This document shows, one piece after another, positions 14,448-19,697 of a stretch of DNA of 32,000 nt. A model generated the notes under the pieces. It was not told the DNA's origin, did not search any database, and saw only the letters and a program-made list of their open reading frames with translations. This stretch comes from Synechocystis sp. PCC 6803 substr. PCC-P (GTDB lineage Bacteria > Cyanobacteriota > Cyanobacteriia > Cyanobacteriales > Microcystaceae). How positions within the stretch are numbered: position 1 is the stretch's first letter; every line of letters begins with the position of its first letter. The translations under genes and the position numbers were made by a program. Where the stretch lies: NCBI RefSeq assembly GCF_000284455.1, contig NC_017039.1:510001-542000 (forward strand), given 5' to 3'.

Positions 14448-17400
14448 GTGGTGGAAATATTGTTAATTTCACCCCTGATAGCCGTGTTGAACCCCAGTTT
14501 ACGCCTCTTTTGCCTAGCTTTACTGGCTTGTTCGTCTAGTTTTTCTGGCAATGTTCTGGCCCAAAACATTACCCCAGCTCCGGACGGCACTGGCACCACT
14601 GTCGATGCCCAGGGCAATCAATTCAACATTGGTGGGGGGAGTTTGTCAGGGGATGGACAAAATTTATTCCACAGTTTGCAACAGTTTGGGCTAGACCAAG
14701 GACAAATTGCCAATTTCCTTTCCAACCCTGATATTCGTAACATTCTCACCCGAATTGTGGGGGGAGATGCGTCCATTATTAACGGTCTCATCCAAGTAAG
14801 CGGGGGCAATGCCAATCTCTTTTTGATGAACCCAGCGGGCATGATTTTTGGTCCCAATGCCAGCATCAATGTGCCCGGGGATTTTGTGGTCACCACTGGT
14901 TCGGCGATCGGCTTTGGCAATGACCAATGGTTCCAGGTTTTTTCCGACAATGATTACAATGCCCTGATAGGCAATCCCAGCCAATTTGCTTTTGATTTGG
15001 CTAACCCCGGTTTAATTATTAATGCGGGGGATTTGTCGGTAACGGAGGGCAAAAACCTCACTTTTTTGGCAGGAAATATCGTTAACACCGGTTCCTTGGC
15101 CGCCCCTGGAGGCAATATCACGGTGGCCGCCGTGCCAGGGCAGAATCGTATTCGTATTTCCCAAGCTGGCAGTTTACTGAGTTTGGAGGTGGAGGTTTCT
15201 CCCCAAATGAATCAGGGCGGCTCCTTTTCCGTGTTGGATTTACCGACCCTGTTAACCCAAGGAGCGAGCAATCTTGATTTGGGGTTAGCGGTGCAGCCCA
15301 ATGGCAGTGTTACGACCAACGGGACTAACGCTTTGGTTTCTCCGTTACCAGGTTCTGTCACCATATCGGGCAATGTTGATGCCAGTGGTAAAAGCACTAA
15401 TATTTCCTCCGGTGGCCAAGTGGCGATCGCCGGCGATCAAATAGCAGTACAAGGCGCTACCGTTGATGTTTCAGGCAATGGTGGTGGCGGCACAGTGCGC
15501 ATTGGTGGCGATTTTCAGGGCCAGCTCACTTTGCCCAATGCATCCCAAACCCTGATTGATAGTAATTCAGTAGTCAAAGCTGATGCCCTACTGACAGGAA
15601 ATGGGGGAACCGTTATCGTTTGGGCCGATGACTCTACCCGCTTTAGTGGGAATATTTCAGCCCAAGGTGGAACCATGGGGGGAAACGGCGGCTTTGTGGA
15701 AACCTCCGGCGCCAAAAGTTTGATGGTTGACGATACCGCCAGGGTTAATACTTTCGCCACCATGGGAGAACTTGGTACTTGGTTGTTAGATCCTCTAGAA
15801 ATAATTGTCGGAACCACCGATGATCTACTTGCCGATCCAAAGCTTGTTTCGGTACTTACAATCACAACCAGCTTGGACAACGGTAACGTTATTCTTCAAG
15901 CAGATCAATCCATTGCCGTTCAGGCAAATTTTAGTGCTGATCCCTCTGCCCCCGGTAATCTCACTTTCGATTCTCCTACAATCACTATCGATGCTCTTTT
16001 TTCCTTGGGAACTGGCTCAATTATTTTTGCTAACACAGGTCCCATTAACACTGGCAATACATTAGTTACTTCTCCTTTCACCAATTTAGATTTTGACAAT
16101 AAAATTCAACTCAATGCCAACACAACATTTACTGCTCCGGGATACGACATTTATTTCCGTAAATCTGTCAACGGCGGGTTTGATTTATTAGGCAACGCCA
16201 ACTTTGTTTATTTTGATGACGGAGCTGGTATCACTACCCCACTGAAAAGTTTCGGTGTCACAGCTACGGAAATCTATGTAGGTAATGACATCGTTACCCA
16301 GGGAAATCAAATTTTCGACGGGGTGTTCTATGGATTACAACCAGTTAATTTGACGAGTAGCGCAGGCTCAGTAATTTTCACCAACAATATTCTGCTTAAT
16401 GGAAGTCTTCAAGTTCAGACTGCCCAAAATATCGTCAGTCAACCTTCTTCTTCCCTGAGTGCAGTGGAAATAGCATCCGACGTATTACTTAATGCTGGAC
16501 AAAATGTTTCGTTCGGGAATATCAATACCCGGGGGGGCAATGTTGATATACAAGCTTTGGGCAATATTTCCACTGGATCAATAGTTACCTCTCCATTTGG
16601 TGGAAATGCAGGCAATGTAATTCTCAATGCGGGTGGGACTCTCACCACCGGCTACATAGAAACGTCTGGGACGAATGGCGGTGATGTTACCACATCTTCC
16701 GGTAGTAATACTAGTACTGCTTATATTGATACCCGGGGATTTGGAGATGGCCTAGAGATAGATAGTTTGGGGGGAGCTGTTTCTATCGAAAGCAAGGGAG
16801 ACATTACCACCGCCTTTATTGATACCGGAGCTTACTCAATTGAATCCTTCAATGAAGGTACGGGAGGAAATGTTTTCCTCACAGCAGATGGCAGTATCAC
16901 AACGAATTACATATTCACCGCTGGAAAAAATGGTGGTGATATTTTCTTTCAAGCTGGTGAAAGCATAGAAATCATCGATTATTTAAATACCTATGGAAGT
17001 CAAACTAGTGGAGATGTATATGTTGAGGCTCCACTGGATATTTCAATTGGTTCCTACATATACACTGGAGGGGGTGGGGAGCCAGGCAATGTATTCCTGC
17101 AAGCAGGGGGAGATATTACCACTAGCTACATAGATACGTCGGCAGCCAATGGCGGTGATATTTTTATTCAGTCGGGGGGAGACACCGAAGTTGGTTATCT
17201 ATTCACTAAAGGGTATGAAGGTAGGGGAGGAGATGTTTATGTTGAAACTGGCCGTTATTTTCGGGCGATCGATGGCTTTTTACTTGGTGAAGAAGGACCT
17301 TTTAGTGTCTACACCGCCGGCCTCACCGTTGGTGGTTCTGTGTACATTCAATTTGGTGGAAGTGAACCTTTCATCATCGGCAATCCAATTACCAATGGAA

Positions 17401-19697
17401 CCATTGGGGCAATCAGTTCGGGAGATGACAATACTGTACCAATCGGTACACCACCAATTTTTGATACTTTTACCCTGGACAATATAACCATAACCACTGA
17501 ACCCGAGCCGGAACCTGAACCCGAGCCGGAACCTGAGCCGGAACCTGAACCCGAGCCGGAACCTGAGCCGGAACCTGAACCCGAGCCGGAACCTGAACCC
17601 GAGCCGGAACCTGAACCCGAGCCGGAACCTGAACCCGAGCCGGAACCTGAACCCGAGCCGGAACCTGAACCCGAGCCGGAACCTGAACCTGAGCCTGAAC
17701 CTGAGCCGGAACCTGAGCCGGAACCTGAACCCGAGCCGGAACCTGAGCCGGAACCTGAACCCGAGCCGGAACCTGAGCCGGAACCTGAACCCGAGCCGGA
17801 ACCTGAGCCGGAACCTGAACCCGAGCCGGAACCTGAACCCGAGCCGGAACCTGAACCCGAGCCGGAACCTGAGCCGGAACCTGAACCCGAGCCGGAACCT
17901 GAGCCGGAACCTGAACCCGAGCCGGAACCTGAGCCGGAACCTGAACCCGAGCCGGAACCTGAACCCGAGCCGGAACCTGAGCCGGAACCTGAACCCGAGC
18001 CGGAACCTGAGCCGGAACCTGAACCCGAGCCGGAACCTGAACCCGAGCCGGAACCTGAGCCGGAACCTGAACCCGAGCCGGAACCTGAGCCGGAACCTGA
18101 ACCCGAGCCGGAACCTGAGCCTGAGCTTCCAACTCCTTCCATACCCGTCGAACCTCCAACTTCTCCAGATGTTGAGGAAATTGATGATGAGAGGCAAATA
18201 TCGTTTGATATTGAGCGTTCTACTGTTACCAATACCCCCAGCTTGGAAATTCAGAGCCAAGACACAGTTCCCGGCATTAATACTTTCAGCGCCAATGTTG
18301 GGGTTAACATCCCCACTAATCAGGTTGTTTTGCAACAGCAACTAAATGAAAACGTAGAGGAAAGTATTTCTGCACAATTCACTAGTCACCTCAATTTAAA
18401 TATTGATATTGAATTGGTTAATCCCGTTGATGTTTTGCAGGAATTAAATCTCAACACTGGGGTAAATTCTGCCTTGGTTTATATCTATTTCTATCCTCCA
18501 GGAACTGCAGGAGAAAATCTTCCTGAATGGCAACTTTCCTCTGATAGTGAGCCGGCTATTCCCCCTGTGGGCTCCTATGCTAAGGTCAGTCATTGGCAGA
18601 TGGCATCCACTGAGCAACTGATTATTCCTCCTAATAATGATCCGCGGCCGGACGATCAATTGGTAATTGTGGTAGTTACGGCAGACGGTATTGCTAGTCC
18701 CATTCCCCTTAACGTTAGCCGCAGGGAAGTAATCCGCCAGGTGGAAATGTTAAACCGAAATCTAACGGCGGCAAATCGAGGCGATAATTACCAAGGCCAG
18801 GCATCCCAGTTATATGACTGGTTTATCAAGCCAATTAAACTGATTTTGGAGAATAAGAAAATTGAGAATATTAGCTTTATTCTCGACCGGGGTTTGCGTT
18901 CTCTGCCCATGGCCACCATGTACGATCGCCAGTCTGGGCAATACTTGATTGAGGACTATAGCGTGGGGCTGATGCCCAGTTTGAGTTTGACGAACCGGGA
19001 TTATGCGCCCCTAACTGGGGCCCAGATATTGGCCATGGGAGCGGAAGAGTTTGCTAACCAAAATCCCTTGCCAGCGGCGGCGGTGGAGGTAGACACCATT
19101 ACCAATCAACTCTGGCGGGGTAGTGCTTTCCTCAATGACCGGTTCACGGTGGATAACTTTGTCCAGTCCTTGGCAACTAAGGAGTATCGTCTAGTACATT
19201 TAGCTACCCATGGTGAATTTTTACCGGGTAATCGCAATAATTCCTTTGTGGTTTTCAGCGATCGCTCTTTGGATTTAGACGAATTTGCTAACGTGGGCTT
19301 GGATAAACCCATTGATTTGATGGTGCTGTCGGCCTGTCGCACTGCGGTGGGGGACTTTGACGCTGAATTAGGCTTTGCTGGCCTGGCGGTGAAAACTGGA
19401 GTCAAAACGGCGATCGGGAGTTTGTGGTATGTCAGCGATGAAGCTACCTTTGCTCTGATGACTAGTTTTTATGATCGACTTCAGCCAGCACCCATCAAGG
19501 CCAAGGCCCTACAGCAGGCCCAACTAAGTCTGCTCAGAGGAGAAATTCGGGTTGTGGACGGTAATCTAGTCCTTGGGGATGGCACAAATATTTCCTTGGC
19601 GGATTTACCGGCTGATATTCGACAACGCTTAGCAACCCAAGATTTAAGTCATCCCTATTTTTGGAGTGGCTTCACCCTAGTGGGCAGCCCTTGGTAA
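14448..19697 (+). CDS. Giant exported protein: signal peptide, TPS (filamentous haemagglutinin N-terminal) domain, parallel beta-helix repeats, (EP)104 spacer, and a C-terminal CHAT (caspase-like) protease domain
   Basis: 1749 aa.
- The hydrophobic leader ends ...SFSGNVLAQ.
- The TPS region (about aa 38-165) has [15 protein letters not shown] and [12 protein letters not shown] (N128-M132, nt 14829-14843).
- Gly/Asn/Thr-rich ~20-aa beta-helix rungs follow (for example [32 protein letters not shown], around nt 16550-17330).
- The EP tract covers aa 1018-1225.
- The C-terminal CHAT pattern has VHLATHGEF (His1588, nt 19209-19211) and [12 protein letters not shown] (Cys1630, nt 19335-19337).
- The GTG start at 14448 is uncertain. 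Confidence 0.85.
17499..18122 (+). repeat. 624-bp tandem hexanucleotide repeat encoding 104 uninterrupted Glu-Pro dipeptides
   Basis: The tract is in frame with the giant ORF. It is built from synonymous hexamers (gaaccc, gagccg, gaacct, gagcct). These form two higher-order units: 18 nt (gaacccgagccggaacct) and 12 nt (gagccggaacct). One irregular patch lies around 17680-17720. Confidence 0.97.

Follow-up and report, generated by a model that had tools for sequence, protein, structure and literature searches.

Where does a caspase-fold protease act when it is joined to a two-partner secretion domain and a beta-helical stalk? The question is raised by the slr1753 gene of Synechocystis sp. PCC 6803, which lies in a 32,000-nucleotide stretch of the PCC-P chromosome (NC_017039.1, positions 510,001 to 542,000 of the forward strand; hereafter the window). 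The open reading frame (ORF) occupies positions 14448..19697 of the plus strand, stop codon included, and begins with GTG; it encodes 1749 amino acid residues (aa) and is by far the longest ORF of its neighbourhood. The genome coordinates, the size and the repeat given in papers on slr1753 agree with this ORF. Another PCC 6803 chromosome record (CP129343.1, locus L008) is 100% identical over the coding stretches compared on both sides of the repeat (window 14484-17496 and 18131-19697). The product has been mentioned in the literature as a giant surface protein, and RefSeq names it 'CHAT domain-containing protein' (WP_238569087.1, 1537 aa). The gene thus comes from a model organism, had been annotated before and belongs to a very large family.

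Profile and structure comparisons show the predicted product to be a TpsA-type (type Vb, two-partner secretion) exoprotein with a C-terminal CHAT module. The order of its parts is a Sec leader, a two-partner secretion (TPS) domain, an EtpA/HMW1-like beta-helix, a Pro-rich hinge and a CHAT cysteine-protease module of ~465 aa. With moderate confidence, I consider the best explanation to be TpsA-type export of a hinge-tethered protease which would process or signal outside the cytoplasm, rather than of a delivered toxin.

Start codon and export signal

GTG 14484 (codon 13) is probably the start of slr1753, rather than GTG 14448, which lies 12 codons upstream. RefSeq WP_238569087.1 and the Logan gene models begin at GTG 14484, and translation from this codon gives a canonical Sec leader of 27 residues with a hydrophobic core, followed by Asn. 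The signal peptide was called heuristically, by eye and hydropathy. In an alignment of 51 family members, the consensus at the predicted cleavage site is ..AQ/xITPAxDGTGT (the slash marks the cleavage). A weak lipobox-like sequence, LLAC, is found within the signal peptide (window 14520-14531, aa 25-28); Synechocystis salina keeps it, whereas the family at large does not. The protein could be processed as a lipoprotein rather than cleaved by signal peptidase I, but the sequence is probably a coincidence.

The sole cysteine of the mature protein is the catalytic C1630, which suits a cysteine protease in an oxidising compartment. Together, the predicted signal peptide, the TPS domain and the lone catalytic cysteine strongly imply export. 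A cell-surface location was inferred in a resequencing paper (PMC3514855), and the proteomics of Huang 2004, as reported by a citing paper, placed Slr1753 in the outer-membrane fraction.

Secretion domain and beta-helical stalk

In the Pfam search, PF05860 covers aa 44-288 (E=3e-53; 181.8 bits against a cut-off of 33.5), and the NCBIfam model TIGR01901 (adhes_NPXG) matches the same TPS domain (E=5.5e-23; 80.7 bits against 29.1). In the family alignment, N, P and G of its NPAGM motif are invariant and A is nearly so. The similarity to known TpsA proteins continues into the stalk. Positions 39-999 of the family profile align to the EtpA structure 8vba (E=1e-56) in a PDB search that also matched HMW1 (2odl), and the single slr1753 sequence matched EtpA over aa ~47-759 by phmmer. 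The AlphaFold2 (AF2) model of aa 27-1017 (predicted local distance difference test score, pLDDT, 76) is an all-beta solenoid composed almost wholly of short beta strands. Its best PDB match by Foldseek was full-length EtpA (8vbb, E=2e-16), followed by the secretion domains of EtpA, HMW1 and HxuA.

EtpA of enterotoxigenic Escherichia coli and HMW1 of Haemophilus influenzae, which match slr1753 best over aa ~47-1017 in both sequence and structure, share with it a TPS domain and a long right-handed beta-helix. Unlike slr1753, they have no C-terminal protease and no Pro-rich hinge with a globular enzyme behind it. Their tpsB gene (and a glycosyltransferase gene) is adjacent, whereas slr1753 has no partner gene in the window.

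C-terminal CHAT protease

Is the C-terminal module an intact protease? PF12770 covers aa 1451-1747 (E=3.8e-62; 210.8 bits against a cut-off of 24), from position 3 to position 289 of the 289 in the profile. H1584, H1588 and C1630, together with the surrounding HLATH and LSACRT motifs, are invariant among the 51 aligned members. The AF2 model of aa 1226-1749 (pLDDT 84; predicted template modelling score, 0.82) has a disordered linker to aa ~1284, and then one ordered unit (aa 1285-1749). Foldseek matched this model to Csx29/TPR-CHAT (E=1e-13, probability 1.0), then to separase, SAVED-CHAT, DdvA, gingipain and caspases. Since these alignments span 360-500 columns, aa 1285-1450 can be assigned to the N-terminal half of the CHAT module. 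A PDB search with the module as a single sequence gave no match, and fold comparison alone gave matches. PADLOC gave nothing for the protease module beyond a weak match to BovA (E=6e-5). Judging from sequence and model, the module is a predicted clan CD caspase-fold cysteine protease, whose His/Cys dyad is intact and which is apparently active.

The caspase-like fold, the pseudo-caspase N-terminal half and the His/Cys dyad are shared with Csx29/TPR-CHAT (type III-E Craspase), separase, SAVED-CHAT, HetF and DdvA. However, the well-characterised CHAT proteases are cytoplasmic and are activated by a partner (an RNA-guided complex, securin or a cyclic nucleotide), while slr1753 has a secretion signal. 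In contrast to Craspase and SAVED-CHAT, it lacks a TPR or SAVED module, and neither CRISPR genes nor those of a cyclic-oligonucleotide-based antiphage signalling system (CBASS) accompany it in the window. A Craspase-type system was rejected, as no TPR match was obtained and no cas genes are present among the ORFs of the window; the likeness goes no further than the fold of its protease part. The nearest precedent for an extracytoplasmic CHAT domain is presumably the anti-sigma factor DdvA. Gingipain and clostripain are extracytoplasmic caspase-fold cysteine proteases like slr1753, and gingipain RgpB was among the fold matches. They differ from slr1753 in belonging to other families (C25/C11), in being exported by another route (type IX secretion system or Sec) and in having no TpsA part in the same polypeptide.

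An original prediction, made from the DNA letters alone, had named several of these parts. Its leader is borne out by the hydrophobic core and the family-conserved AQ cleavage site from GTG 14484 (a heuristic call), its TPS domain with NPAGM at aa 128-132 by the Pfam search and the motif position, and its CHAT region with the H1588/C1630 dyad by the Pfam match and the invariance of both residues in 51 members. It had also proposed comparing a model of the C-terminal region with caspase and CHAT folds, and the AF2 model of aa 1226-1749 does match them in Foldseek. As for its Gly/Asn/Thr-rich beta-helix of ~850 aa, the EtpA homology and the AF2 model agree with the fold; the length is to be corrected to ~730 aa after the TPS domain.

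The Glu-Pro tract as a family hinge

The pure Glu-Pro tract of 208 aa that the original prediction reported is exact; (EP)104 occupies aa 1018-1225 (nt 17499-18122) and has a net charge of -104. The DNA array is an irregular mix of 18-nt units (GAACCC GAGCCG GAACCT) and 12-nt units with one odd stretch. Other PCC 6803 records (CP129343.1; AGF50742.1, 1549 aa; WP_238569087.1, 1537 aa) have (EP)4 at this place, and a clean in-frame deletion of 600 bp, between the identical repeats that bound the tract, separates the long allele from the short one. The 1749-aa translation read with an initial Val has no entry in the protein collection searched. By resequencing and polymerase chain reaction, Trautmann et al. 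(2012) found a 0.6-kb shorter form in PCC-M, GT-V and even the GT-Kazusa reference substrain, and an error in the reference was suspected (PMC3514855).

Is the long tract real? The short forms in these substrains and records would suit the explanation that it is an assembly artefact of the 1996 reference and that the gene encodes an ordinary adhesin with a vestigial protease. I regard this explanation as having a slim chance. The irregular order of 18-nt and 12-nt units in a 624-bp array cannot arise by assembly from a 24-bp tract; thus, a pure assembly artefact is an unlikely origin of (EP)104. Long tracts also exist elsewhere. Synechocystis sp. B12 independently has ~87 EP units whose unit usage differs from that of this record, and 24 units were counted in the syntenic orthologue of S. 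salina, whose tract may be collapsed because the assembly is from short reads. Nor is the protease vestigial, with its dyad invariant and a dN/dS (ratio of nonsynonymous to synonymous substitution rates) of 0.06.

A Pro-rich segment at this position was found to recur in the family. In 22 relatives, a segment 20 to 77 aa long (PT, PV, PE or PD type) ends 440-516 aa before the C-terminus, a distance similar to that of the slr1753 tract (524 aa), which indicates a recurring hinge position. Further relatives have shorter Pro-rich segments (8-18 aa) there. On these comparisons, (EP)104 is an extreme form of a family-wide Pro-rich hinge. The tract itself is best seen as a dispensable spacer that is prone to slippage and recombination.

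Alternating Glu-Pro runs are also present in the Pro-rich rod of TonB and in the trypanosome EP procyclin, and, as in these proteins, an extended polyproline-II-like acidic rod is expected; at 0.31 nm per residue, the 208 residues would span ~64 nm by my own estimate. However, the likeness is compositional only, and the slr1753 tract is far longer than that of TonB and varies 26-fold between close strains. A procyclin identity was rejected, as the Pfam family Trypan_PARP reached 78 bits against a cut-off of 100 and matched the EP repeat only, by composition.

The length of the tract also bears on the reports of slr1753 as an adaptive locus. A cadmium-evolution paper reported that an insertion of one EP unit arose in slr1753 of the Cd-evolved strain, and a NaCl-evolution paper reported an indel in the EP tract and a rise in cell-surface Na on over-expression of the evolved allele. 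Since the tract changes length easily and maps poorly, caution is due when such mutations from laboratory evolution are taken as 'adaptive'. The cation-binding and adaptive laboratory evolution phenotypes can be by-products of the polyanionic tract, and such a tract on the surface is a simpler explanation of the reported Na+ binding than 'ion transport'. A run of 104 negative charges would bind cations unaided. The 'ion transporter' or 'membrane protein' reading of the evolution papers finds no support in any domain.

The repeat leaves several traces in databases. A second S. salina record terminates at the EP tract. A metagenome contig (L039 86-1558) starts inside an (EP)n tract directly upstream of a CHAT module; thus, EP hinges occur in at least one further assembly and tend to break short-read contigs. 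Logan contig L007 ends exactly at the end of the EP tract, which is ambiguous since other Logan contigs of the gene break elsewhere. Long ORFs on the minus strand over the repeat (17280-18341, 17348-18232 and 17470-18159) are by-products of the repeat, and in strain B12 one such by-product (L092 5134-5955) is annotated as a 273-aa gene. The true slr1753 counterpart of B12 is split into many pieces, apparently by an error-prone assembly. These cases are a warning for annotation; short-read assemblies truncate or collapse slr1753 at the EP tract, and the error-prone B12 assembly fragments it.

Selection on the two termini

Against the syntenic S. salina orthologue, dN/dS was 0.054 for the TPS domain, 0.063 for the CHAT domain, 0.09 for the pre-CHAT subdomain and 0.17-0.29 for the stalk. 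The C-terminal module is 91% identical between the two species; the stalk, at 71%, is the most divergent part. Thus, judged by these sequence comparisons, both termini are under strong purifying selection, and the stalk evolves fastest, as an exposed surface would be expected to do.

Family and gene neighbourhoods

Is this architecture common in cyanobacteria? A search with the slr1753 protein lacking the EP tract gave 3,727 matches at E<=1e-10. Almost all of the top 120 matches carry PF05860 and PF12770 and are cyanobacterial (for example from Coleofasciculus, Nostoc, Oscillatoria, Lyngbya and Crocosphaera), and they are annotated as 'CHAT domain-containing protein' or 'filamentous hemagglutinin family protein'. 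In 119 of them, the TPS domain lies at aa ~30-290 and the CHAT domain ends at the last residue; the exception, P0001, is an N-terminal fragment without a CHAT match. With the protease module as query, 3,756 matches at E<=1e-30 were obtained among 1.84 billion 50%-identity representatives, and the match ends at or near the protein C-terminus in all 150 representatives listed. The C-terminal module is common to the family at 40-50% identity. With thousands of matches sharing this layout, the combination of TPS and CHAT is ordinary in databases; on this sequence census, the architecture is not unusual and marks a very large annotated cyanobacterial family.

I found no paper joining 'CHAT domain' with filamentous hemagglutinin, with two-partner secretion, or with hemagglutinin and cyanobacteria, and a broader literature search turned up only a survey of polymorphic toxins (PMC3482391). 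The original prediction was aware of no biochemical characterisation of this architecture, and the searches agree with it. In Oscillatoria acuminata and another large cyanobacterial genome, a TPS-CHAT gene lies among other caspase-fold genes (L009 941-7645; L010 513-2645 and 14091-17585), namely Peptidase_C14-DUF4384, TPR-CHAT and Peptidase_C14-nSTAND-WD40 genes.

Which genes accompany the module? The neighbourhoods of 92 loci, of which 80 come from metagenomes and the others from genomes or the window itself, were examined with hidden Markov models built for this analysis. A gene for an ShlB-type TpsB is nearby in 7 of the ~37 loci that have a full-length TPS-CHAT gene, and DUF928 and/or CHASE2 genes are nearby in 6. 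Overall, 14 of the 92 loci (~15%), with TPS-fused and stand-alone CHAT forms alike, have a DUF928 and/or CHASE2 gene no more than 10 kb away; with a handful of such genes per genome, I roughly estimate a chance expectation of ~2% of loci. Stand-alone relatives of the protease module (460-540 aa) are common and begin with clear Sec signal peptides, and at L042, L049, L069 and L072 they lie beside DUF928 and CHASE2 genes. The DUF928 neighbours also carry signal peptides. The recurrent partners beside CHAT genes are a periplasm-facing sensor domain (CHASE2) and a small secreted protein (DUF928).

The CHASE2 receptors near CHAT genes differ strikingly in their cytoplasmic modules, which are guanylate cyclase, GGDEF, histidine kinase, Ser/Thr kinase, TIR or a second CHAT. 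This variety suggests that one extracytoplasmic input may be wired to many outputs, including death-type effectors. Receptors beside exported-CHAT and DUF928 genes were seen at L060 629-2584, L065 1291-3408, L040 12715-15087, L069 4274-9039 and L072 11767-13524.

For PCC 6803 itself, candidates for the partners can be named. A candidate for its TpsB is slr1661. In the sister strain Synechocystis PCC 6714, an unlinked gene for an ShlB/FhaC-type transporter lies between ppx and dapF (AIE74041.1). As the module also exists in stand-alone proteins with signal peptides and recurs next to genes for DUF928 and CHASE2, Sll1891 and a CHASE2 receptor (Cya2/sll0646, a CHASE2 guanylate cyclase of this strain) are its likeliest partners in PCC 6803. 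Sll1891 is a DUF928 protein (PMC5587647), and cyanobacteria are rich in TpsB proteins of the Hmw1B subgroup (PMC4104836).

Where the protease may act

In the proposed mechanism, the Slr1753 precursor would cross the inner membrane via Sec, and its TPS domain would dock on an ShlB/Hmw1B-type TpsB encoded elsewhere in the genome. The beta-helix would be threaded outward and fold on the cell surface, and the hinge would tether the protease to this stalk. The protease would act outside the cytoplasm, in site-specific processing or signalling of envelope or secreted proteins, possibly through a DUF928-CHASE2 route.

On which side of the outer membrane would it lie? The original prediction suggested a surface-displayed or released protease, kept far from the cell by a rigid acidic rod. 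In that explanation, the whole protein is exported and the CHAT module, at the distal end of the stalk and rod or released, cleaves extracellular targets such as surface proteins of other cells, the cell's own S-layer or pili, or phage. I consider this possible though rather doubtful. Many TpsA proteins are fully secreted, including EtpA, the closest structural match, and a C-terminal protease would be the last part to emerge. Long EP tracts do occur naturally, as in B12, and the rise in surface Na on over-expression fits an exposed acidic tract. However, elsewhere among PCC 6803 records the rod comprises only 4 units while the compared coding sequence is otherwise unchanged, so distance from the cell is not essential; with family hinges of 9-77 aa, the rod is not a fixed feature. 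Moreover, closely related modules exist without an outer-membrane export device, the recurrent partners are a sensor domain that faces the periplasm and a small secreted protein, and TpsA proteins with C-termini retained in the periplasm are known (HMW1, the FhaB prodomain and arrested CdiA). No evidence was found for a far-end position. Given these precedents, the Sec-only stand-alone relatives and a window without TpsB, a periplasm-side location is at least as likely, and my analysis leans towards retention of the CHAT module in the periplasm, the hinge lying within or close to the pore of TpsB, over a place at the distal tip.

Could the protein be a toxin instead? CdiA/CdiB and other polymorphic toxins of the type V secretion system (T5SS) share with slr1753 the TPS domain, the beta-helical filament and the C-terminal enzymatic domain, and possibly a secretion-arrested periplasmic state. 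Among the C-terminal toxin types of some lineages, cyanobacteria included, a survey names Tox-Caspase; however, T5SS is not one of the routes given for it in the table there (PMC3482391). CdiA systems have an immunity gene, a pretoxin motif and a polymorphic C-terminus, and slr1753 has none of the three. No immunity-like ORF is present in the window, where gpsA starts 100 nt downstream of slr1753, a synteny kept in S. salina, and the protein has no VENN/ELYN-type pretoxin motif. The C-terminal module is more conserved than the stalk (91% against 71%), the opposite of polymorphic toxins. A CdiA-like contact-dependent toxin that delivers a caspase-like domain into neighbours is therefore rejected as very improbable. 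The contact-dependent antagonism suggested by the original prediction is likewise unlikely, with no immunity gene in the window and the C-terminal module as the most conserved part.

A further explanation is a peptidase acting in cis, which cuts its own polypeptide at or near the hinge and thereby frees or matures the beta-helix adhesin, with no other substrate. The conserved hinge lies directly upstream of the module, where such a cut would fall, and for caspase-like domains of polymorphic toxins and large surface proteins, a part in autoprocessing or release has been proposed (PMC3482391). Yet the stand-alone versions with signal peptides have nothing to release, releasing peptidases usually lie upstream of their cargo while the protease is the last domain here, and the association with DUF928 and CHASE2 points to substrates in trans. 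I therefore regard a role in cis alone as improbable.

The preferred explanation, export of a tethered processing or signalling protease, has its own difficulties. No TpsB/POTRA gene was found in the 32-kb window by ORF and domain scans. Many cyanobacterial exoproteins have only Sec signals; since such exoproteins are frequent, the Sec signal on stand-alone relatives is no proof of a periplasmic location. Neither a DUF928 nor a CHASE2 gene is present in the window or at the loci of the closest relatives (L001 and L003), and the predicted partner link comes from a minority of loci (roughly 15%) and from other species. According to the evolution papers, slr1753 knock-outs have no growth phenotype in standard medium, in 4 uM Cd (wild-type background) or in 4% NaCl. 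All of these weigh against it. A reviewer counts slr1753 among the loci whose disruption raised Cd sensitivity in one background.

Features of slr1753 and other genes of the window

The coordinates of the features are listed in Table 1. The neighbours of slr1753 in the window are chlH, a PAS histidine kinase gene, mlaD with an ABC ATPase gene, gpsA, a GNAT gene, glnA, a hybrid kinase gene and a response-regulator GGDEF gene, a set that speaks for a cyanobacterium. A scan for promoters and terminators gave sites no more numerous than in shuffled sequences.

Table 1. Features of slr1753 in window coordinates (aa numbered from GTG 14448)
Feature	Position	Strand	Basis
Whole ORF, slr1753 of Synechocystis sp. 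PCC 6803	14448..19697	+	ORF list; identity to CP129343.1; published coordinates
Start and Sec signal peptide, predicted cleavage after LAQ	14484..14564	+	Start-codon list, hydropathy, family consensus
TPS domain, aa 44-288	14577..15311	+	PF05860, TIGR01901
NPAGM (NPNG-type TPS motif), aa 128-132	14829..14843	+	Position check
Beta-helix stalk, aa 289-1017, EtpA/HMW1-like, Gly/Thr/Asn-rich	15312..17498	+	Family profile against PDB, phmmer, AF2 and Foldseek
(EP)104 tract, length-hypervariable hinge	17499..18122	+	Sequence; lengths in other records
Pro-rich hinge continuation (14 residues) and predicted disordered linker, aa 1226-1284	18123..18299	+	AF2 pLDDT <50, residues 1-59 of the C-terminal model
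Pre-CHAT N-terminal subdomain of protease module, aa 1285-1450	18300..18797	+	Ordered in AF2 model, Foldseek coverage, conserved in many relatives
CHAT domain proper, aa 1451-1747, extreme C-terminus	18798..19688	+	PF12770
HLATH motif with invariant H1584 and catalytic H1588	19197..19211	+	51-member alignment
Catalytic C1630 codon (LSACRT motif)	19335..19337	+	51-member alignment

Three other loci of the window may be mentioned. Right after chlH, a gene at 2717-4735 (+) encodes a 672-aa AAA_15/AAA_21 ATPase, whose best matches in a defence library are AriA, GajA, PtuA and Old. It sits in an island of 30-33% GC (low-GC ~3001-5000), while the remaining window has ~38-56% GC, which suggests a candidate anti-phage ATPase gained by horizontal transfer. 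Between the PAS histidine kinase gene and mlaD, two short overlapping ORFs at 11020-11459 (-) encode a DUF4096 and then a DDE_Tnp_1 transposase domain; the pair is an insertion sequence of the IS5-family type or its remnant. Further downstream, a 1462-aa hybrid histidine kinase gene (PAS/GAF/HisKA/receiver/Hpt; 23188-27576, +) overlaps by 4 nt with the response-regulator-GGDEF gene (27573-28520, +), and the two are probably one operon.

Possible implications for envelope signalling in cyanobacteria

Taken further, exported CHAT proteases, DUF928 proteins and CHASE2 receptors may form an undescribed pathway of extracytoplasmic proteolytic signalling in cyanobacteria. DUF928 would be a substrate or a regulator of the protease, the CHASE2 domain would read the product, and the stalk of the TpsA-fused form would serve as a surface antenna, with the hinge passing through the TpsB pore. 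This is a speculation to which I give a low probability. The role in death or signalling that the original prediction had suggested is compatible with the gene-neighbourhood data.

What remains of value is a clade of CHAT proteases predicted to be exported, a hypothesis based on gene neighbourhoods, and one gene that lends itself to experiment. Apparently, slr1753 is a single, unlinked copy in the most tractable cyanobacterium; thus, its secretion, topology and substrates, and the link to DUF928 and CHASE2, are testable by standard genetics. The known CHAT proteases (separase, Craspase, CBASS effectors and HetF) are tightly controlled cytoplasmic switches. An exported clade would bring a caspase-fold protease into the cell envelope. 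If the pathway exists, the CHASE2 domain would drive cyclases, GGDEF proteins, kinases and even TIR and caspase-like death effectors, and the stalk of Slr1753 would couple events at the cell surface, such as contact, shear, or attack by phage or predators, to the protease.

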